10,771 nt of DNA from IMG/VR virus record IMGVR_UViG_2541047881_000001, one strand, 5' to 3'. Every line of letters starts with the position of its first letter. Position 1 is the first letter of the stretch. This DNA is from a virus (Duplodnaviria > Heunggongvirae > Uroviricota > Caudoviricetes). Shown here in pieces: positions 1 through 10,771 of this stretch. The position numbers and the translations under genes were made by a program. The notes beneath the pieces are model-generated. The model was not told the DNA's origin and ran no database searches. It worked only from the letters and a program-made list of their open reading frames with translations.

Positions 1-102
1 ATGGCCATGAATGGCGTTGGATGCCGGGCAACTGCCCGCATTATGGGCGTTGGCCTCAACACGATTTTACGTCACTTAAAAAACTCAGGCCGCAGTCGGT
101 AA
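1..102 (+). CDS. insA: IS1 InsA, C-terminal 33 codons (5' partial at window edge)
   Basis: Frame 1 translates [33 protein letters not shown] then stop (TAA at 100-102), matching the InsA C-terminus as recalled. The A6C slip site sits inside it. Confidence 0.8.
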
Positions 103-524
103 CCTCGCGCATACAACCGGGCAGTGATGTGATTGTCTGCGCTGAAATGGACGAACAGTGGGGCTACGTCGGTGCTAAATCACGTCAGCGCTGGCTGTTT
201 TACGCGTATGACAGGATACGGAGGACAGTTGTGGCGCACGTTTTCGGTGAACGCACTCTGGCCACACTGGAGCGTCTTCTGAGCCTGCTGTCGGCCTTTG
301 AGGTCGTGGTATGGATGACGGATGGCTGGCCGCTGTATGAATCACGCCTGAAGGGAAAGCTGCACGTTATCAGCAAGCGTTACACTCAGCGCATTGAGCG
401 ACATAATCTGAATCTGAGACAACATCTGGCAAGGCTGGGACGGAAGTCACTGTCGTTCTCAAAATCGGTGGAGCTGCATGACAAGGTCATCGGGCATTAT
501 CTGAACATAAAACACTATCAGTAA
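21..524 (+). CDS. insB: IS1 InsB (C-terminal part of the InsAB' transposase), 167 aa
   Basis: ORF track 21..524; the translation [58 protein letters not shown]...HYLNIKHYQ is near-identical to E. coli InsB as recalled. Confidence 0.93.
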
Positions 525-2938: not shown

Positions 2939-2992
2939 CCTGTTTACCTCTTTCTCAGGAAGTTTAGTCTCCAGGATTCCCGGGGCGGTTCA

Positions 2993-3133
2993 CTTCATCT
3001 TCGTTAGGCCATTTTGGGAGATAATTTTCCCCCTGCCTGCGCATTTCAAGCGTACCGCCCATCAGTGCGTCGTTAATATCCCACGCCTCCAGCATATCGT
3101 TATAGTCGAGGTTGGGTGTTGATATATCAGCCA
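2993..3133 (-). pseudogene. Phage portal-like protein, N-terminal 47 codons only, truncated by IS629
   Basis: ATG at 3133 lies 4 bp after the terminase large subunit stop. The translation MADISTPNLDYNDMLEAWDINDALMGGTLEMRRQGENYLPKWPNEDE runs straight into the IS629 inverted repeat at 2992. The portal assignment rests only on the conserved position immediately after the large terminase gene. Confidence 0.45.
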
Positions 3134-3136
3134 TAA

Positions 3137-4447
3137 TTAAATCCGAAGTGATGTGACTCTTCCGGTCGGTTTGACAATAGGGAATTGCTTAACGATGAAA
3201 TAACCTCCGGCATCATTCGGGTGATCATTGCCAGATTTTTTATCAGGCTCCCCCTTCTCATCCCAGACCTGTTGCTCCAGAGATTCGGCATATAACGGGC
3301 AACGCTTCACATTAACTTTATAGCGACGCTCACCATTGGCATTGCAGAACATTGCATTCATTGAGTTAACGCGATCTTTTACTGGCGGGTTCGAGCTGTT
3401 CACCACAACGTTAAAACCAGCCTGCTTAAGCTGGGCTATATCCGTCGTACTTGCGTTACTTGATTTTCTGGAATCCCCGGAAGCATCTGGATAAATATAA
3501 ATTTCCCTCACTTTCCGGTAATCATTCCCATCATACAGCCAGAAGCGTTCTTTAATGATGCGGATCATATCCGGCGTATCGTAGGCATTGATGATTTCAG
3601 TTACCGCACATGGAAGCCCCAAACGCAGCACATGGACGATTCCCGCCATCTTTCCAACGTTAAAATCCATCCCAATATAAATCGGCTCCCCTGGCTGCTC
3701 CACTTCTTCGCAATTATTCAGTTTCCGGTCAAACTGATGGTAAACAGTACCACTTGTCAGGTTAGTAAACTGTCCTCGAAGATAGGCTTTAATCAGCTCT
3801 GGAGGGTATGATTCAAGAAGCGAAGGAATGTAATCTGCTGGCAGGTTCTTTTCATTATCGAAAGTAGATGCCTGCACCAGACCATACAGTGAGGCCAGCT
3901 CTGTTTTTTCACGCACGGCTTTAACAAACTGCTCGTAGACAAATTTGAATCCTTCCGGCGTGGTTGTAACGTCAATACCGTTGCGAAGTCCATCAATCTT
4001 ATAACGCATACGTGCAATTATCTTGCGCCACGCCGTTCTGGCTTTTTCCTTCGGCAAAATGTCCAGTTCATCCACCAACGCATTACCAATTTTGAAACCG
4101 ACGATCGTTTGTGGCTTCTCCATCGATCTGCAGATAGTGGTTCCCCGATACTGGCGTCCGTAATAAAAGTGAACCTCTTTATTTCCCTCATTAATTTTTA
4201 CGTTCAATCCCCAGTCAGCAGCAACTTCTTCCACTGTAGGGTAAAAAATATCGCGAATTTGGGGATACGTTGGCGCAAAATATCCCTGATTTATACCTGG
4301 ATGCTCCCAAATCCCCTTGCATATGCCGCCACACCCAACCCATGTTTTGCCCGAGCCAAAACCAGCAATATAGGCTTTAAATTTATGGGGCATTGAAAGA
4401 AATCGCGCCTGAGGCACATTAAGCGTCGGAGAGATCATCTTCATCAC
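3137..4447 (-). CDS. Phage terminase large subunit (ATPase/nuclease)
   Basis: ORF track 436 aa. Walker A-like AGFGSGKTW near the N-terminus and Walker B-like hydrophobic stretch NALVDELD; overlaps the upstream small terminase gene. The listed start at 4447 is GTG; an ATG at 4438 preceded by AAGGAG about 8 nt upstream is the more likely start. Confidence 0.85.
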   Translation of the reverse strand: MMKMISPTLNVPQARFLSMPHKFKAYIAGFGSGKTWVGCGGICKGIWEHPGINQGYFAPTYPQIRDIFYPTVEEVAADWGLNVKINEGNKEVHFYYGRQYRGTTICRSMEKPQTIVGFKIGNALVDELDILPKEKARTAWRKIIARMRYKIDGLRNGIDVTTTPEGFKFVYEQFVKAVREKTELASLYGLVQASTFDNEKNLPADYIPSLLESYPPELIKAYLRGQFTNLTSGTVYHQFDRKLNNCEEVEQPGEPIYIGMDFNVGKMAGIVHVLRLGLPCAVTEIINAYDTPDMIRIIKERFWLYDGNDYRKVREIYIYPDASGDSRKSSNASTTDIAQLKQAGFNVVVNSSNPPVKDRVNSMNAMFCNANGERRYKVNVKRCPLYAESLEQQVWDEKGEPDKKSGNDHPNDAGGYFIVKQFPIVKPTGRVTSLRI

Positions 4448-5513
4448 TCCTTACTCTGGCATCAACCACATTAATATTGATCGCCACAGGCTGGGGATGT
4501 TCATTATCTTCCACCGTTTCGATCTCTTTGCGCAGCTTCTGGTTTTCCATTCTGCGCCGTTCAATTTCCAGTTCCTGTAGCCGTTTATCTGCACATAAAG
4601 CCCCGCCAGCAGAAAACAAACGCAACAATTCACGCCGGGCGGCAGCCTTATCCTCCAGCAGGATCTCAACGCCGAATTTTCCGAATTTTGCCCCTGCATA
4701 TAATTGCCGCGCATCCCCATCAAGCAGAGTGGTATCAGCCATATAAAGCTGTCCCGTTCCCTCACCGCAGCACTTCGGGCAGTCCGGATTGGGTATGGCG
4801 TTATCAACAAAGCCGAGGCCTCCATATTCCGGTTCGGGTTTGCCATCTCTGGAAGCCTGCGCCGCTGCCTTGTCGAATTCTGCTATATCGCGCCACTGGT
4901 AGAGATGATTCTCGCCCCAGCAATAACGGCAGTTAACACGGCGAAATTGTGCAAGCTGATTGGGGTCGGCCAGGACAATAGCCATCAACTGACTCACTAG
5001 TAAATCCAGGTCTGCGGTATAGCGTTTCTGGTACTGATTGCGGAAGTAGCTGATAGCGCGAAAAACCCTGGCATTTCTAAGCATACGACTGGCGTTGCTG
5101 TTAGCTGTCGCACCTTGCCCCTCATAACCGGCTAGTCGGTACGCCTCTGTCGGCTTTTTACCCTGAGCAACAAGCATCGCAAACTTAGCCTGCTGGTCAG
5201 AAATGCCGAATTCATCGGGACAGAACGAAAATTCCTCCGCGTCGCCCTCATTCAGGCCCGCATCGAATACTGGCTTTTTTTCCTGAGATTTTTCGTTCCG
5301 CTTTTGTGCAGTCTGCGCAGATTTTTTCTGCGCACTTTTTTGCGCAGTTTTGCACATTTCTGTCTGCGCATTTTTCGGAGTTTTTTTGATGTAACGACGG
5401 GCTGTTGCGTAATTCAGTCCCCTTGCTTCACACCATGCCACCGGAGATATACCGGAGCGGGTGTATTCAGCAATATACTCCTGCTGCAACGCCCCCCAGT
5501 CCGGTCTGCTCAT
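4419..5513 (-). CDS. Phage terminase small subunit (long form with extra N-terminal HTH, K/A/Q-rich repeat linker and Cys cluster)
   Basis: ORF track 364 aa, immediately upstream of and overlapping the large subunit. The segment SDQQAKFAMLVAQGKKPTEAYRLAGYEGQGATANSNASRMLRNARV resembles the small-terminase DNA-binding motif (Q..F..EY....T.AY..AGY.......AS.LL.N..V). The N-terminal 50 aa look like an additional HTH. Confidence 0.65.
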   Translation of the reverse strand: MSRPDWGALQQEYIAEYTRSGISPVAWCEARGLNYATARRYIKKTPKNAQTEMCKTAQKSAQKKSAQTAQKRNEKSQEKKPVFDAGLNEGDAEEFSFCPDEFGISDQQAKFAMLVAQGKKPTEAYRLAGYEGQGATANSNASRMLRNARVFRAISYFRNQYQKRYTADLDLLVSQLMAIVLADPNQLAQFRRVNCRYCWGENHLYQWRDIAEFDKAAAQASRDGKPEPEYGGLGFVDNAIPNPDCPKCCGEGTGQLYMADTTLLDGDARQLYAGAKFGKFGVEILLEDKAAARRELLRLFSAGGALCADKRLQELEIERRRMENQKLRKEIETVEDNEHPQPVAININVVDARVRSDEDDLSDA

Positions 5514-5516
5514 CAG

Positions 5517-5768
5517 TTAGTCCTGATTTTTATCCACCCTGAGTAGTTCGCGCAGAGCAAAGGCATCCCCTTTTCTGGCAAGCTTAAACAATGCCGCTCG
5601 TAACTCGGCTTCACCTTTCGCTCTGCCCTTACGGATGGCCGCATAAAAATCTGTCATTGCTTCCCGATTTTCTTTCAGTCGGTTCAGATCAACATCCAGA
5701 ACGTCAGCGATTTGTTGTGCAGTCATCCGGCACGCTGCCAGAGACTCGACTTTCGAATACGGAATCAT
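5517..5768 (-). CDS. Small hypothetical phage protein (83 aa), possibly DNA-binding, translationally coupled to the small terminase gene
   Basis: ATG at 5768 is preceded by GGGGGTGA at 4-5 nt. Its stop lies 3 bp before the small terminase ATG. It is a basic, helical-looking sequence (TAQQIADVLDVDLNRL...AIRKGRAKGEAELRAALFKLARKGD). No confident family assignment. Confidence 0.5.
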   Translation of the reverse strand: MIPYSKVESLAACRMTAQQIADVLDVDLNRLKENREAMTDFYAAIRKGRAKGEAELRAALFKLARKGDAFALRELLRVDKNQD

Positions 5769-6657
5769 TTGTCACCCCCATTGATATGCAGGGTGTCTTC
5801 TTCCTGTATTTTTCGTGAAGGATTTTTACTGCAGCGTTGTTCCAGGTGACCTGATGGTGAATGCGTTTATGGCTGGCACCCATCAGTGAGATTTTTACGC
5901 ACGACGGCGCATACATGACGGAGTAAAAACTTTTAACGTAGGTTGCGGAATCCAGATACAGCTCGGTCATTCCGCCGCTGTTTTTCTGCGTCTGTTTCTG
6001 CCCTAACTGGACAGCACCGATCGTCATAAACAATTCACCACAGCGACCGAGATTCGTGTACGTATTCACATCCTCGTTAATGCGCCCCATGAATGAGAAC
6101 GGTCGATCAACCGAACAGATAAAGCTGTTCATTGCCTTGCGTTTCACCCACGAAGCATGGCCGCCATTGTCACCAAGAAAATCCCCGCCCTGCGACATAG
6201 CGATGGAAAGAGCAGGTATTGATTCGTAGTACGCCAGCATTTCAGAAAGGATCGCATCCAGTTTCCTTATCGGAAAATAGGCCTGGTCATAGTTGCGATC
6301 CACCCGAAACTGGAACTCGTGATAATCATCATCGAGCTGAATGAAGTATTTACACCCGACCAGTTTTGCCAGGTCGAAACAGGCATTACGGGCGTAAAAA
6401 ATTGAGCGGCGGTCACAGAAATTATCGGCTTCGTCAAAACGACTGGCGATATCGGCTTTGGAAAACACCAGCACCTGTTCACCAAATTCAGCCATGTACT
6501 GATGCCGTGTCTTATCTTCATCATCAACCACGATAAAAATTTTCCCGGTATAGCCAGCACGACGCAACGTCCGGTAAGTCAGAACTTTGTCCGGTCGCCC
6601 GTGAGTCAGAATAAAGGCGCAAAAATCATCACGCATATTCCTCCTCCTCACCACCAT
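5704..6657 (-). CDS. Hypothetical phage protein with GT-A-like acidic (DxD-type) motifs; candidate nucleotide-sugar or other nucleotide-dependent transferase
   Basis: ORF track 317 aa. The likely true start is the ATG at 6636, with GAGGAGGAGGAA directly upstream, overlapping the ParB-like gene stop as ATGCGTGA. Motifs FILTHGRPDKV, IFIVVDDED and YFIQLDDDYHEF (hydrophobic strand followed by an acidic cluster) resemble GT-A fold glycosyltransferases. No transmembrane segment. The function is inference only. Confidence 0.55.
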   Translation of the reverse strand: MVVRRRNMRDDFCAFILTHGRPDKVLTYRTLRRAGYTGKIFIVVDDEDKTRHQYMAEFGEQVLVFSKADIASRFDEADNFCDRRSIFYARNACFDLAKLVGCKYFIQLDDDYHEFQFRVDRNYDQAYFPIRKLDAILSEMLAYYESIPALSIAMSQGGDFLGDNGGHASWVKRKAMNSFICSVDRPFSFMGRINEDVNTYTNLGRCGELFMTIGAVQLGQKQTQKNSGGMTELYLDSATYVKSFYSVMYAPSCVKISLMGASHKRIHHQVTWNNAAVKILHEKYRKKTPCISMGVTNDSVFESRVSGSVPDDCTTNR

Positions 6658-7420
6658 GCATGATCTCCACCATGCGCTGCGTCATCCGGACAAATCCATT
6701 TTCAATAGCCTGCTGATAATCAATGATCACCAGCGCCGACTCCTCGAAAAAACACTGAATTTCAGAGGGGGCGTGAGCGTAATAGTCCGCAATTCTGCTG
6801 AAATTAAACACCGTGTGACGTTCTGCCGCACACAGGAGGAATTTCTCAATATCAGGCTCAAGGGACGCCGAACGTATCCGGCTGATCAGCTCCTGAGTTT
6901 TCGTATCGTCGTACAGTTCACTGATATCCGGTTTACCGCCCGACGGCTCATAAACAGGCGTATCAATTTTCGTCGTATACGGCTCCTCCTCATTTCCTGT
7001 ACCGGGCAAAACATCCGTCAACAGTTCATCAATTTCTGTCGGGATGAAGCCTGTCAGGGAGACATCAAAATCAGCATTGATTAGGTCCGACAGCTCCATC
7101 CGCAACAGATCTTCATCCCAGCCAGCATTCATCGGCAGGCGATTATCTGCCAGGCGGTACGCCTTTTTCTGCTCATCCGTCAGGCCAGACAGAACAATGA
7201 CCGGAACAGAATCCATTTTGAGCATTTCAGCCGCCATAACACGACCGTGACCCGCAATAATTTCGCCCTTTTCGTCAATCAGCACCGGATTAGTCCAGCC
7301 GAATTGCTTAATACTTTCTACCAGTTGTGCCACCTGCTCAGTACTGTGCGTCCTGGCGTTGTGCGCATACGGTGACAATTCTTGTAATGGGCGATAGACT
7401 ATCTTTAATTTCTCGCTCAT
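6629..7420 (-). CDS. ParB/Srx (ParB N-terminal nuclease-like) domain protein with acidic C-terminal tail
   Basis: ORF track 263 aa. The N-terminal 100 aa (IVYRPLQELSPYAHNARTHSTEQVAQLVESIKQFGWTNPVLIDEKGEIIAGHGRVMAAEM...LTDEQKKAYRLADNR) fit the ParB/sulfiredoxin fold pattern, including a GxxRxxA box (GHGRVMAA, compare GERRxRAA in ParB). The C-terminus is highly acidic (GGEEEEYA). Confidence 0.8.
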   Translation of the reverse strand: MSEKLKIVYRPLQELSPYAHNARTHSTEQVAQLVESIKQFGWTNPVLIDEKGEIIAGHGRVMAAEMLKMDSVPVIVLSGLTDEQKKAYRLADNRLPMNAGWDEDLLRMELSDLINADFDVSLTGFIPTEIDELLTDVLPGTGNEEEPYTTKIDTPVYEPSGGKPDISELYDDTKTQELISRIRSASLEPDIEKFLLCAAERHTVFNFSRIADYYAHAPSEIQCFFEESALVIIDYQQAIENGFVRMTQRMVEIMHGGEEEEYA

Positions 7421-7435
7421 ACAGCCTTGCTTTAT

Positions 7436-7470
7436 GAATAAAACGCACCCCAGCAGCCAGTGCTACTGGG
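7436..7470 (-). terminator. Candidate rho-independent terminator downstream of trkG
   Basis: On the minus strand: CCCCAGTAG-CACTGG-CTGCTGGGG (9-bp stem with one G-U pair, 6-nt loop) followed by TGCGTTTTATTCAT. Located between the trkG stop (7558) and the ParB-like start (7420). Confidence 0.4.
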
Positions 7471-7557
7471 GACGGAGGGGTTGCTGGTAAAGTTAGGTAT
7501 TGGATCAATGAGTGAGTCAACATAATATTAAACTCACAATTATAAATCAGCCATATA

Positions 7558-9016
7558 TTAGGAGCGCCAAAAAAAACCTGAAAACAATATAATAACAGGA
7601 TAAATTTCAAGGCGACCAAGAATCATAGCTATGCACATTAAACATTTTGCAATGTCATTAAGCACTCCGAATGACGATGCAGTAGCCCCAAAACCTAATC
7701 CCATATTATTAATACATGCAGCCACTGTTGCAAATGATGTAAGAAAATCATATCCCATACCATTTAACACCAGTATAAAAAACACCGTGAAGAGAGTATA
7801 AAGAAAAAAGAAACTCCATACAGACCTCATTACACGATCTGTAACTATCTTCCCTCCTACATTTACACTCAACAACGCTCTGGGATGAGAAAGCTGATTT
7901 ATCTCGTGTTTGCTTTGTTTGAAAAGTATAAGAAATCGAAGTGACTTAATTCCACCACAAGTTGAACCTATACATCCCCCAAAGAAACTTGACAACAGCA
8001 AAAACACTATCGTGTGCGTGGGCCAACTTGCATAATCCTGCGTAGCTAAACCATTATCAGTGAGCATGGAGCTGGCAAGAAAAAACGAATGAATAAAACT
8101 TCCATGCAAGTCATACATACCTATATGCCAGACCTGGAAAGAGGTAACAATGATCACCCCTAAGGCTATTAACAGAAAGAAACGAAGTTCAATATCTCTG
8201 ATTAAAGGTTTTATCGTTTTCCTGCTAATAACAATATACCAAAGAGTGAAGTTGAAAGCCGATAGCAGGGAAAAAGAACCAGCCACCAGCTCAACCAAAT
8301 AGTTATTAAAATATCCGATACTCTCGCTATGAGTTGAGAAACCACCAAGCGAAACTGTGGAAATCCCGTGACAAATAGCATCAAACAAAGGCATTCCTGC
8401 AAGTCTATAACAGACAATACAAGCAATACCTAATAAAGAATAAGTTATCCACAGTGTCCGTGACGTATCGGCCAGGCGGGGAGTGAGTTTGTCATCCTTA
8501 AATGGCCCCGGCATTTCTGACTGATAAAGCTTTGCACCACCAATACCCAATAATGGCAATACAGCAACCGCCAGAACAATAACTCCTAAACCACCTATAA
8601 AATTTAACTGTGACCGATAGTACAAATATGCCCGAGGTAATGAACTAACATCATCAATTACAGTTGCTCCTGTTGTTGTTATTCCAGAAACCCCTTCAAA
8701 CAGAGCATCAATGAACGTTAAATTAAGTTCTGAGTCAATCCATAAAGGGAATGCACTAATAACAGAAAACAAAATCCAAAACATTACAATTATAATAAAC
8801 CCATCACGGGTACGTAATTGAATGCCAGATTTCTTAGTTGTATACCACGCTCCGCCACCAATGCAAAAAAAATATAACGAAAGTTATAAAGAAAACGAAC
8901 AGGCTTTTTTCTTTATAAAACAATGCTACAACCATTGGTGGCAACATTGAAAGACTATAGAGCCAAACCAGGAACCCACACATATGAGTAACAACTCTTA
9001 CATGAGATGTATTCAT
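7558..9016 (-). pseudogene. trkG: TrkG/TrkH-family K+ uptake protein, disrupted by a +1 frameshift in a homopolymer run
   Basis: Two overlapping ORFs in different frames (8834..9034 and 7558..8784) together read MNTSHVRVVTHMCGFLVWLYSLSMLPPMVVALFYKEKSLFVFFITFVIFF / CIGGGAWYTTKKSGIQLRTRDGFIIIVMFWILFSV...GGLGVIV...GFSTH.... The frame switch falls in the A8 run at 8865-8872 (T8 on the coding strand). Removing one base gives one 485-codon ORF from the ATG at 9016, the length recalled for Rac-prophage TrkG. TrkH-type signatures are present (GITTTGATV, GGLGVIV, LGGFSTHS). Confidence 0.85.
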
Positions 9017-9034
9017 ATCTAAATATTCTTTCAA

Positions 9035-10544: not shown

Positions 10545-10771
10545 GGTAATGACTCCAACTTATTGATAGTGTTTTATGTTCAGATAATGCCCGATGACTT
10601 TGTCATGCAGCTCCACCGATTTTGAGAACGACAGCGACTTCCGTCCCAGCCGTGCCAGGTGCTGCCTCAGATTCAGGTTATGCCGCTCAATTCGCTGCGT
10701 ATATCGCTTGCTGATTACGTGCAGCTTTCCCTTCAGGCGGGATTCATACAGCGGCCAGCCATCCGTCATCC
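10545..10771 (-). mobile_element. IS1: IS1 insertion sequence, partial (right end and terminal inverted repeat; remainder beyond the window), inverted relative to the copy at 1-539
   Basis: GGTAATGACTCCAACTTATTGATAGTGTTTTATGTTCAGATAATGCCCGATGAC... starting at 10545 is the reverse complement of the IS1 right end. It differs from the first copy at terminal positions (CAATAAGTTGGAGTCATTACC here, CAGTAAGTTGGAGTCACTACC in the first copy). Confidence 0.93.
10560..10771 (-). CDS. insB: IS1 InsB, C-terminal part (5' partial; continues beyond the window end)
   Basis: ORF track 10560..10769 gives [69 protein letters not shown], identical to the C-terminus of the InsB at 21..524. Confidence 0.9.

Follow-up and report, generated by a model that had tools for sequence, protein, structure and literature searches.

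A two-gene cassette of a TAGT-family transferase and a dedicated ParB-like partner upstream of the terminase genes of a Rac-like prophage

GT-A enzymes of phages that are related to the base-J glucosyltransferase (JGT) glycosylate 5hmC DNA, and the T6-type TAGT (TET-associated glycosyltransferase) has been assigned the transfer of a second glucose onto glucosyl-hmC (PMC13390438). The homologous domain of GREB1, a 1,949-aa multidomain protein, O-GlcNAcylates ER-alpha (PMC7968844). ParB-like proteins, for their part, are proven activators of phage DNA dioxygenases on double-stranded DNA, as described for the 5mYOX176/ParB176 pair by O'Toole et al. (PNAS 2026, PMC13229309); such proteins are specific for their cognate enzyme and often encoded near the terminase, and in the same study glycosyltransferases are associated with the ParB-independent subclass of dioxygenases. 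ParB-N modules fused to DNA methyltransferases have also been described in prophages (Kaljevic et al. 2025, PMC12704722). The conserved unit of the locus analyzed here is a two-gene cassette, which consists of a transferase of the TAGT/base-J-GT/GREB1 family, predicted to be of the GT-A type, and a dedicated ParB-like partner. Literature searches for ynaK, for HHTV-2 and for ParB combined with GT and prophage yielded no account of a ParB–TAGT pair.

Organization of the locus and gene boundaries

The cassette belongs to a defective E. coli Rac-like prophage, which carries IS insertions and a truncated portal gene. In the window (the whole stretch of DNA analyzed, 10,771 nt), three tightly packed minus-strand ORFs (6629–7420, 5704–6657 and 5517–5768) lie directly upstream of terS and terL, downstream of trkG and with the trkG moron (7558–9034) on their other side, as the preliminary description had placed them. 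The first (6629..7420, minus strand, 263 aa), called ynaK in RefSeq, encodes the ParB-like protein. The small terminase gene terS (4419..5513, minus strand, 364 aa; Pfam Terminase_2 3.7e-8, phrog_51 1.7e-75) starts 3 nt past the stop codon of the third ORF and overlaps by 29 nt with terL (3137..4447, minus strand), which encodes the 436-aa large subunit (Terminase_6N 3.7e-33, Terminase_6C 3.4e-10). A consensus scan revealed a terminator-like hairpin with a T-run (7448..7471, minus strand) between the trkG stop (7558) and the ParB start (7420), and no promoter-like site between this hairpin and the cassette, so that the latter is probably transcribed solely by antiterminated late transcription; the link to Q antitermination is drawn from lambdoid late-operon organization and from the Q gene lying upstream in locus L001. 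The tight coupling to terS/terL, together with the upstream terminator, likewise points to late expression.

The start of the transferase gene had been left between position 6657 (317 aa) and the ATG at 6636 (310 aa). The longer version was rejected on account of the homologue N-termini and of the Shine–Dalgarno sequence: all 32 aligned homologues start with MRDDFCAFILTHGRP, and the motif GAGGAGGAGG is read at 6640..6649 on the minus strand, inside the 3′ end of the ParB gene. The transferase gene is thus taken as 5704..6636 (minus strand; 310 aa, pI 8.0). Its ATG overlaps the ParB stop codon (6629–6631) by 8 nt, indicating presumptive translational coupling of the two genes. At its other end, it does overlap the 83-aa gene by 65 nt, as previously noticed, but this overlap is lineage-specific: the ancestral stop codon has been lost (TGC TAA in locus L051, TGC ATA TCA here), which added about 22 unconserved codons, and the last ~22 residues of the protein are accordingly an unconserved extension.

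The 83-aa gene (5517..5768, minus strand) has a start at 5768 that finds support in the conservation of residues 1–14 in relatives and in the preceding Shine–Dalgarno sequence GGGGGTGA; the 69-aa call of RefSeq is probably too short. Its product, which is indeed basic (pI 9.25), matches phrog_309 'terminase small subunit' (8.3e-23, profile positions 145–218 of 319), clusters with the 85-aa genes that enterobacterial loci have between TAGT and a Terminase_2 TerS, and can be aligned at 20–29% identity to the N-termini of 149–167-aa TerS-like proteins. It ends where the longer TerS proteins run on for 70–85 residues, so that the oligomerization core and the TerL-binding region are absent; a complete Terminase_2 TerS comes after it, and a 125-aa TerS that follows TAGT in other phages matches the same PHROG 309. 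Only in the enterobacterial lineage with a Terminase_2 TerS was the 83-aa gene seen. Its product is a small-terminase-like HTH protein and probably a packaging accessory standing outside the conserved pair. The idea of a three-gene functional module was therefore abandoned, since the third gene co-occurs with the Terminase_2-type TerS and not with the other two.

The transferase and its ParB-like partner

The preliminary description could not place the transferase in any family, but it is a clear member of Pfam PF20691 (TAGT), with 122.2 bits for a cutoff of 27.5 over profile positions 4–205 of 205, and of PHROG 842 (3.4e-103, positions 1–269 of 270); newer RefSeq records name it 'GREB1-related protein'. 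The name TAGT reportedly goes back to Iyer et al. in 2013. The ORFs are genuine and did not arise by chance: besides this TAGT score, each of the two larger proteins has at least 7,930 homologues in the databases. The likeness to GT-A enzymes that had been suspected is borne out by this membership and by a confidently predicted GT-A (nucleotide-diphospho-sugar transferase) fold; the protein has no hydrophobic or membrane segment, and the segments FILTHGRP, VVDDED and QLDDDY are present and invariant across homologues, all in agreement with the earlier reading. More specifically, the invariant residues comprise R14, D38, D41, E69, D71, N72, Y81-A-R-N84 and D102-D-D-Y105, and further Q149, G151, D152, N187-E-D-V190, G221-G-M-T224, R258, H260 and H261. 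The TAGT motif pattern R ... DDD ... ED is kept, with R14, D102-D103-D104 and E188-D189 invariant in 33 sequences, although the third motif reads NEDV, a valine following ED where the TAGT pattern has EDY/F. All the catalytic-type residues are invariant over this set, which reaches down to 59% identity; in other phyla, TAGT homologues are found down to 27% identity. We take the acidic residues to correspond to D39, D98/D99 and D191 of SpsA, a match made without superposition. Matches by sequence to solved structures were confined to the N-domain of the ParB-like protein, none being obtained for TAGT.

The ParB-like protein consists of a ParB/Srx nucleotide-binding fold followed by a helical hairpin (residues 1–136; 7013..7420, minus strand), a linker predicted to be disordered (residues 137–169), a C-terminal domain and an acidic tail, which the first reading had noticed (protein pI 4.5). 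In the AF2 model, pLDDT is about 90 for residues 10–95 and below 50 for residues 137–169, while the C-domain, at 40–80, is predicted with low confidence. The ParB/Srx call holds: PF02195 (ParB_N) scores 29.3 bits (cutoff 26.3), phrog_620 matches at 1e-90, and the GHGR of the GHGRVMAA segment, invariant in 38 homologues, is the GxxR box on alignment. Indeed, G57-H-G-R60 aligns with the GERR of box II in the Noc, ParB and Spo0J structures, and in the Noc alignment (7ng0) ADN corresponds to IEN, which makes N93 the box III asparagine. The box II glutamate of ParB is implicated in hydrolysis; its position is occupied by His58 here. Yet the protein departs from ParABS proteins outside the fold and box II. 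TIGR00180 reaches 38 bits (cutoff 58) over the N-domain only; no HTH family matched, the predicted model passing from the helical hairpin to the disordered linker; no parS-like repeats occur in 5400–7650; and no parA ATPase is present in the window or in the annotated prophage, the neighbors of the ParB gene being trkG and the transferase gene. The N-module falls into one clade with ParB modules fused to phage DNA methyltransferases, as judged from its matches to phrog_498 'DNA methyltransferase' (8.8e-51, residues 3–141) and to PADLOC MTase_II (1.5e-38), and from a tblastn search that retrieved 430 phage records, many of which carry the annotation DNA modification methylase. This MTase-fused ParB module was the only match among PADLOC defence models, which recognized neither the transferase nor the 83-aa protein.

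The C-terminal part (residues 143–263, linker motif included; 6632..6994, minus strand) has no Pfam match and forms a family not described before, which in the surveyed loci occurs only beside TAGT. In a set of bacterial and archaeal-virus sequences (A3), Y148, P155, Y157, E158, R201, H202, Q222, E226 and D234 are invariant, as are K151 and P159 in a proteobacterial and metagenomic set (A2). The domain is kept in E. coli, soil metagenomes, Lactobacillus phages c5 and phi jlb1 and halovirus HHTV-2; its 1,186 cluster representatives at 50% identity are nearly all proteins of 250–310 aa with the domain at the C-terminus.

The conservation of the neighborhood, whose survey had been proposed, was assessed in IMG/VR contigs from the two sides, the best 80 matches being kept, so that the sample is biased. 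Of the 44 non-redundant loci selected by TAGT, 43 have ParB directly upstream of it; all 80 loci selected by the ParB C-domain contain TAGT, which is adjacent in 73. The pair spans phages of E. coli, Lactobacillus and Porphyromonas as well as a haloarchaeal virus. Sequence identity is 42–47% for TAGT among phages of E. coli, Nocardia (TAGT only), Lactobacillus and the haloarchaeal virus, and 37–46% for the C-domain in the same group less Nocardia. In a mirror-tree comparison, the divergence of TAGT follows that of the C-domain (partial r 0.42) but not that of the N-domain (−0.03), a modest signal that disappears among distant pairs. In about a quarter of the loci the partner is reduced to the C-domain and lies among genes for DNA polymerase, clamp, helicase and DNA MTase. 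No ParB–TAGT fusion was found among the best 150 of the 1,186 C-domain representatives; the one fusion found joins ParB to donor-synthesis domains (locus L157).

Genomic context and candidate acceptors

The cassette directly precedes terS/terL, with at least five Pfam types of TerL represented, and at other loci it lies within replication modules that include PolA, beta-clamp, SNF2 helicase and N6_N4 DNA MTase. The genes beside TAGT in relatives include UDP-galactopyranose mutase (Glf), His_Phos_1 plus a cytidylyltransferase (once fused to ParB), CofD-like plus NTP-transferase, a second TAGT, a methyltransferase and radical SAM. The transferase would appear to be a working enzyme, because relatives add donor-supply or tailoring genes beside it. 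In E. coli the cassette is intact at ≥95% identity in 866 complete genomes, and its frequency is roughly one in six to one in three sequenced genomes; as the prophage is defective, the genes may be idle here.

A hidden hydroxymethylpyrimidine pathway was looked for and rejected. The annotated Rac-like prophage, the complete c5 and phi jlb1 genomes, 50 of the 52.6 kb of HHTV-2, and the surveyed flanks and recurrent neighbor clusters yielded no TET/JBP, no thymidylate-synthase-like hydroxymethylase and no cytosine-C5 methyltransferase; the flank search covered four precomputed Pfam neighborhoods and ~45 neighbor proteins compared with Pfam, which a very divergent 5mYOX can escape. Thus, the only acceptor chemistry known for the TAGT family is missing. 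Barring a highly divergent oxygenase that escaped the search, the acceptor must be something other than the usual 5-hydroxymethylpyrimidine. For none of these phages is there a report of glycosylated DNA. The acceptor is probably universal, like DNA and unlike a host-specific envelope polymer, because TAGT and the C-domain are conserved across unrelated hosts.

Any explanation of the pair starts from what is directly supported, namely its family membership, fold and catalytic motifs, the obligate pairing, the location in packaging or replication regions and the lack of a detectable hydroxymethylpyrimidine pathway. The reading we favor, to which we give an even chance, is that of a late-expressed, ParB-licensed DNA glycosylation module. 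The linker and C-domain of the ParB-like protein would bind or license the transferase on double-stranded DNA, a step paralleling the ParB-like activation of phage thymine dioxygenases. The transferase would move a sugar from a host nucleotide-sugar to replicated phage DNA just before or during packaging, where it would presumably blunt host nucleases, and the 83-aa HTH protein would serve packaging separately. In this scheme we infer DNA as the acceptor, a physical ParB–TAGT interaction and protection from restriction. The DNA-modification module put forward in the preliminary description seems to fit both the family assignment and the context. As to chemistry, it is possible, and we suggest it tentatively, that the pair glycosylates DNA without 5-hydroxymethylpyrimidines, on a canonical base, a base methylated by host Dam/Dcm, the backbone or the ends, by a ParB-fold-licensed reaction so far undescribed, which viruses of Lactobacillus, Bacteroidota and haloarchaea would share with E. 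coli; relatives would then extend the cassette to more complex glycans by means of their Glf, cytidylyltransferase, radical-SAM and methyltransferase genes.

Several observations run against DNA as the acceptor. Besides the missing acceptor chemistry, the ParB-like protein is strongly acidic and has no recognizable DNA-binding domain, and cell-wall glycopolymer pathways, too, typically include donor-supply genes such as Glf and TagD-like cytidylyltransferases. The GREB1 homologue, moreover, glycosylates a protein (PMC7968844).

Protein glycosylation of the GREB1 kind, which we consider unlikely, would have as its likeliest acceptor the ParB partner, at its invariant linker motif with Tyr, Ser and Thr residues (Y148...P155-x-Y157-E-P), or else a terminase, virion or host protein. 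Such a reading draws on the O-GlcNAcylation of ER-alpha by the homologous domain and on the failure to find a hydroxymethylpyrimidine source in the prophage, c5, phi jlb1 and the 50 of 52.6 kb of HHTV-2. For all its predicted disorder, the linker has invariant Y148, P155, Y157 and E158 (and K151 and P159 in most sequences), like a docking or acceptor peptide, and a partner that co-evolves with the enzyme is as universal as DNA. However, a docking motif explains the invariant linker equally well, the characterized prokaryotic and viral members of the TAGT family act on DNA, the ParB N-module is attached to bona fide DNA methyltransferases elsewhere, and the quarter of loci with a C-domain-only partner place it among DNA replication and modification genes.

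It is quite improbable that the transferase is a soluble TarP/TarS-like enzyme acting on teichoic acid, LPS or capsule precursors for superinfection exclusion or receptor masking, with ParB taking part in packaging. Some loci do carry Glf, cytidylyltransferase-like and CofD-like genes beside TAGT, and such genes typically belong to wall-polymer pathways, but the enzyme is highly conserved across hosts with unrelated envelopes, a haloarchaeon included, lacks a membrane segment and is obligately paired with the ParB C-domain (ParB being fused to donor-synthesis domains in L157); the genes also occupy late or replication modules, even in the virulent phage c5, and not lysogenic-conversion positions. 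Least probable of all, by our estimate, is a packaging accessory, in which the ParB-like protein would be a nuclease, nickase or DNA organizer for the terminase and the transferase a passenger or relic: the cassette adjoins terS/terL in most loci, a stand-alone ParB-like gene directly precedes the terminase in another E. coli phage, the prophage is defective and the transferase gene has lost its ancestral stop codon, but the invariance of the catalytic-type residues, the persistence of homologues to 27% identity, the intact E. coli cassettes, the many loci with the pair away from the terminase and the fact that the transferase was not seen without a C-domain partner in the sample (43/44 and 80/80 loci) all speak against this reading.

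Characterized prokaryotic and viral members of the TAGT family decorate DNA with a hydroxymethyl handle provided by a hydroxymethylase or TET/JBP, none of which was detected beside the pair. If DNA is the acceptor, temperate coliphages long assumed to have plain DNA would possess an unrecognized glycosylation system with a new acceptor chemistry, bearing on restriction evasion, Type IV restriction targeting, sequencing artefacts and DNA-labelling tools; if it is the ParB partner or another protein, the pair would represent protein glycosylation of the GREB1 type in prokaryotes for the first time. In both cases, it would extend the recent idea of ParB-fold proteins as licensing factors for DNA-modifying enzymes, and the acceptor question is directly testable in E. 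coli (e.g. ETEC H10407) or in the cultured phages c5, phi jlb1 and HHTV-2.

Comparison with known systems

The phage TET/JBP-associated GTs (PF20691; the GT-A class of '5mYOX-associated' DNA GTs) belong to the same Pfam family as the transferase and share its predicted GT-A fold, its R...DDD...ED catalytic pattern and its neighbors (ParB, terminase, a second GT, methyltransferases and sugar-tailoring enzymes); they differ in the accompanying TET/JBP, C5 methyltransferase or hydroxymethylase, none of which was detected here, and in having EDY/F in place of NEDV. The beta-glucosyl-HMC-alpha-glucosyltransferase of T2/T6 is a distant homologue of the same family and PHROG (the BFVD match of the transferase is the Klebsiella phage PKO111 enzyme, E 2.5e-6). 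Like the activity proposed here, it transfers from a nucleotide-sugar to a hydroxyl on modified DNA, but it extends a glucose already present on hmC made before replication, has no ParB partner and is encoded by an early gene of a large virulent phage. The trypanosomatid JGT and vertebrate GREB1 have a homologous GT domain, according to the literature and to the RefSeq name, and no ParB partner; JGT needs 5hmU made by JBP, whereas the acceptor of GREB1 is a protein, ER-alpha.

On the ParB side, the ParB-N/MTase fusions (phrog_498, MTase_II) are 45–57% identical over the N-terminal 141 residues and often occupy the same spot just upstream of the terminase; here, by contrast, ParB is unfused and has a dedicated C-terminal domain, and the enzyme is a separate glycosyltransferase. 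Finally, the partner of the ParB176-type activators is a dioxygenase in place of a glycosyltransferase, and the C-terminal domains are likened by architecture, not sequence; in both systems, however, a nucleotide-binding fold is followed by a C-terminal domain without HTH, and the gene lies beside that of its enzyme (43/44 and 80/80 loci in our surveys), a post-replicative DNA-modifying enzyme in the ParB176 system and possibly here.

The prophage setting and gene boundaries

The window comes from a lambdoid, Rac-like E. coli prophage that is defective and bounded at both ends by IS1 transposase genes (21–524, plus strand, and 10560–10769, minus strand). The minus strand carries the holin, lysozyme and Rz genes (10327–9154), the AT-rich trkG moron (9034–7558), terS (5513–4419), terL (4447–3137), the N-terminal 56-aa stump of the portal gene (2964–3134), an IS3-family element with rve and HTH_Tnp_1 ORFs (1725–2938) and a tape-measure fragment (535–1635). 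It is the IS3-family element that cut the portal gene to a stump; since it abuts the tape-measure fragment, the intervening head genes are missing. The prophage being defective, the ParB-like and transferase genes (hereafter the cassette), even if intact, may be idle here. DNA matching positions 5400–7500 at 95–100% identity is found in 1,600 of 5,426 complete E. coli genomes, 866 of which cover at least 80% of the query, and in 10 deposited phage records; RefSeq names the ParB-like gene ynaK and, in recent records, the transferase a 'GREB1-related protein'. The trkG moron is broken into a 66-aa ORF (8834–9034, minus strand) and a 408-aa ORF (7558–8784, minus strand) by a single extra T near 8872, compared with the intact 485-aa trkG of E. 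coli 23CRST009 (L001), which holds an intact relative of the prophage; the split points either to a frameshifted pseudogene or to a T-run sequencing error. The same relative encodes, between its cI-like repressor and N, a 345-aa protein (L001 36717–37754) with no Pfam match, at a position typical of lysogen-expressed defence morons.

The three minus-strand ORFs of the preliminary description are all present between trkG and terS: the ParB-like gene (6629–7420, 263 aa), the transferase gene (5704–6636, 310 aa) and an 83-aa gene (5517–5768). Of the two transferase starts then considered, the ATG at 6636 stands: homologues all begin MRDDFCAFILTHGRP, and this ATG, which overlaps the ParB stop codon by 8 nt, is preceded by GAGGAGGAGG; on both counts the start at 6657 (317 aa) was rejected. 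The 65-nt overlap between the transferase 3' end and the 83-aa gene is real and results from the loss of an ancestral stop codon in this lineage (TGC TAA in the comparison locus L051, TGC ATA TCA here), the tail of about 22 residues beyond the lost stop being unconserved in the homologue alignment. The 83-aa gene starts at 5768, where relatives share both the opening 14 residues and the GGGGGTGA Shine-Dalgarno sequence; it ends 3 nt before terS, and terL and terS overlap by 29 nt. This gene, at first counted as a member of the module, belongs with packaging: its product matches PHROG 309 'terminase small subunit' (profile positions 145–218 of 319) and can be aligned to the HTH region at the N-terminus of the 149–167-aa TerS proteins that follow the transferase elsewhere. 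In enterobacterial loci, its counterparts of 83–86 aa (61–82% identity) are encoded between the transferase gene and a Terminase_2 TerS gene. Finally, a terminator-like hairpin (7471–7448, minus strand) lies between trkG and the cassette, with nothing resembling a promoter between hairpin and cassette, so that cassette expression probably depends on antiterminated late transcription.

The transferase and its ParB-like partner

The transferase, which the preliminary description could not place in any family, is a clear member of the TET-Associated Glycosyltransferases (TAGT, Pfam PF20691; 122 bits for a cutoff of 27.5) and matches PHROG 842 (3e-103), named after the T-even beta-glucosyl-HMC-alpha-glucosyltransferase. 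No solved structure is detectable by sequence for any member of the family. The AlphaFold2 model (33 input sequences) exceeds pLDDT 90 over its N-terminal half, and its structural neighbours among viral models are other TAGT proteins (TM 0.73–0.80). The acidic motifs on which a GT-A fold had been proposed end strands 32–38 and 97–101 of this model, in agreement with that proposal; they would thus occupy the nucleotide- and metal-binding positions of GT-A enzymes and presumably correspond to D39, D98–D99 and D191 of SpsA. The residues invariant in the alignment are R14, D38/D41, E69-x-D71-N72, YARN81–84, DDDY102–105, Q149-x-G151-D152, NEDV187–190, GGMT221–224 and R258/H260/H261. Among them is the R...DDD...ED pattern described in the GT-A DNA glycosyltransferases of phages and in the JGT of trypanosomes (10.1101/2023.12.21.572611).

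Residues 1–95 of the ParB-like protein are confidently modeled as a ParB/Srx fold. Its assignment to ParB holds, since box II (G57-H-G-R60) aligns with the GERR of the Noc, Spo0J and ParB structures, and N93 aligns with their box III asparagine. The first 141 residues match methyltransferase-fused ParB modules (phrog_498, 9e-51; PADLOC MTase_II, 1.5e-38) and are 45–57% identical to 'DNA modification methylases' among 430 phage records, whereas the match to segregation ParBs (TIGR00180, 1e-9) is under its cutoff; judged by these matches, the N-terminal module is far closer to the ParB modules of phage DNA methyltransferases than to segregation ParBs. Profile search detected no HTH in the protein, the annotated prophage has no ParA gene and no parS-like repeats surround the cassette. 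The protein is acidic (pI 4.5). Its linker (residues 137–169) is predicted to be disordered, yet Y148, P155, Y157 and E158 are invariant, and K151 and P159 are kept in most sequences. Residues ~170–255 form a predicted helical domain (C-domain) with invariant R201–H202, Q222, E226 and D234 and the motif SALVIID. This region matched no Pfam family and constitutes a large separate family: clustering at 50% identity leaves 1,186 representatives, of which 1,000 have E ≤ 1e-10, and nearly every one is 250–310 aa long and carries the domain at the C-terminus. In L001 (21230–22021), the ParB-like gene is frameshifted and RefSeq lists a pseudogene ynaK (N-terminal part) and a separate 'transcriptional regulator' (C-terminal domain), a name that none of the profile matches obtained here supports.

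Conservation of the pair and its gene neighbourhood

The first survey covered 44 non-redundant loci picked via the transferase from IMG/VR, metagenomes, bacterial genomes and complete phage genomes. In 43 of them, a ParB gene with the C-domain lies directly upstream of the TAGT gene, the overlap usually being a few bases; in the exception, L091, it lies 3 kb upstream. Conversely, of the 80 best matches picked via the C-domain, for which a Lactobacillus phage sequence served as lead, 73 loci have TAGT directly downstream of the C-domain gene and the remaining 7 have it at another place in the locus. Rather than the three-gene operon initially proposed, the conserved unit is the ParB–TAGT pair (43/44 and 80/80 loci). 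In roughly one in four of the loci selected by the C-domain, the partner is reduced to that domain (121–164 aa), which makes this domain the TAGT-specific part of the ParB-like protein. The pair occurs in Enterobacteriaceae, soil metagenomes, the Lactobacillus phages c5 and phi jlb1, a Porphyromonas phage and the haloarchaeal virus HHTV-2, with identities across this range of 27–47% for TAGT and 37–46% for the C-domains compared. Over 87 pairs, TAGT divergence correlates with that of the C-domain (r 0.51; partial r 0.42) and not independently with that of the ParB N-domain (partial r −0.03); the signal is lost among distant pairs, so that support for co-variation is weak. The ~191-kb Vibrio phages carry a TAGT homologue amid replication genes (44% identity; 6887–7888 in pv27, 191 kb, L093), preceded by a 139-aa ORF with no annotated ParB gene upstream.

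Most commonly, the pair sits immediately upstream of terS/terL, with at least five unrelated TerL types downstream (Terminase_6, Terminase_3, TerL_ATPase/nuclease, GpA and T7-like); in other phages it lies inside a replication module with a family-A DNA polymerase, beta-clamp, SNF2 helicase and N6_N4 DNA methyltransferase. A second TAGT paralogue is found beside it in about 15 loci. In 22 of the 80 loci, TAGT is directly followed by an uncharacterised radical-SAM enzyme of ~320 aa, absent from the E. coli cassette, whose best NCBIfam matches (SPASM/twitch, MoaA-like maturases) are all far under cutoffs and which might generate or modify the acceptor or the sugar in the phages that carry it. 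Loci with this gene after TAGT include L103, L105, L116–L119, L123, L144, L151, L159, L161–L169 and L173. In five c5-like loci (L097–L101; L098 1638–2777), a UDP-galactopyranose mutase gene (Glf, 2e-74) between TAGT and the terminase genes implies a UDP-galactofuranose donor. Histidine phosphatase (His_Phos_1) and cytidylyltransferase-like domains are fused to ParB-N and the TAGT-specific C-domain in one 560-aa protein (L157 4572–6254) or make up a gene of their own, placed between those of ParB and TAGT (L139 5208–6176, L142 814–1782), and a cytidylyltransferase-like gene follows TAGT in L131 (6371–7117), L120 (6260–6691) and L140 (7119–7565), suggesting an unusual nucleotide-activated donor. 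L104 (1531–6140) and L113 share the unusual order TAGT, C-domain-only protein, 572-aa CofD-like protein, MobA/IspD-like NTP transferase and second TAGT. Class-I methyltransferases are also among the added genes, and the TAGT of L091 (8001–9719) carries a class-I SAM methyltransferase domain fused at its C-terminus; those of L153 (5345–6736) and L159 (5348–6769) have a ~185-aa N-terminal extension of no assigned family. Altogether, the genes added beside the pair are donor-supply and glycan-tailoring functions and show that TAGT works as an enzyme within a modular glycosylation pathway. Note that a phage with the pair also has four consecutive Glycos_transf_2 genes just downstream of the major capsid gene (L006 17837–20316, L007 8659–11138), which may reflect virion or further DNA glycosylation.

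Acceptor of the transferase and comparison with known systems

TAGT-related enzymes have been assigned both DNA and protein substrates: a T6-type TAGT is considered the enzyme that puts the second glucose on glucosyl-hmC (PMC13390438), JGT-related phage GT-A enzymes glycosylate 5hmC in DNA (10.1101/2023.12.21.572611), and the homologous domain of GREB1 O-GlcNAcylates ER-alpha (PMC7968844). Neither a TET/JBP dioxygenase nor a thymidylate-synthase-like hydroxymethylase nor a cytosine-C5 methyltransferase turned up in the annotated E. coli prophage, in complete c5 (31.8 kb) and phi jlb1 (38.3 kb), in 50 of the 52.6 kb of HHTV-2, or in the flanking-gene Pfam tables and recurrent neighbour clusters, an absence to be read with the caveat that many phage 5mYOX (TET/JBP-type) dioxygenases escape the Pfam model (PMC13229309). 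The usual hydroxymethyl handle, being absent, does not account for the acceptor. DNA nonetheless is the acceptor suggested by the known substrates of the family, by a ParB module that DNA methyltransferases also carry, by the location of the pair amid replication and packaging genes and by its strong conservation in hosts whose envelopes are unrelated; the DNA-modification idea of the preliminary description seems sound. The best-supported reading, in which we place about even confidence, is a late, post-replicative DNA glycosylation module: the ParB-fold protein would use its linker and C-domain to license the transferase on dsDNA or to tether it there, and the transferase would glycosylate DNA late, after replication.

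Protein glycosylation, possibly at the invariant Tyr-containing linker of the ParB partner, would agree with the GREB1 precedent and is an unlikely alternative, set against the DNA-directed company that the ParB module and the pair keep. Modification of an envelope polymer by the transferase is improbable, given the unrelated envelopes of the hosts. Least probable, by a little, is a packaging accessory with an idle transferase: the frequent position next to terS/terL would suit it.

ParB genes were previously noticed near TET clusters and proposed by Aravind's group to direct the modification machinery during packaging (PMC8256090). In 2026, HTH-less ParB-like proteins made of a nucleotide-binding and a C-terminal domain proved to be required, cognate-specific activators of a phage thymine dioxygenase subclass acting on dsDNA (PMC13229309). 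ParB-fold/DNA methyltransferase fusions, which bind CTP or ATP, are enriched in prophages (PMC12704722). Our literature search found no paper on a TET-less ParB–TAGT pair; Iyer et al. 2013 may already mention such neighbourhoods. The cassette is widespread, easily testable and present in E. coli itself, with an acceptor that the usual handle does not explain. Compared with these systems, its components are ordinary, and what would be new is their combination into a TET-independent TAGT cassette that depends on a ParB C-domain.
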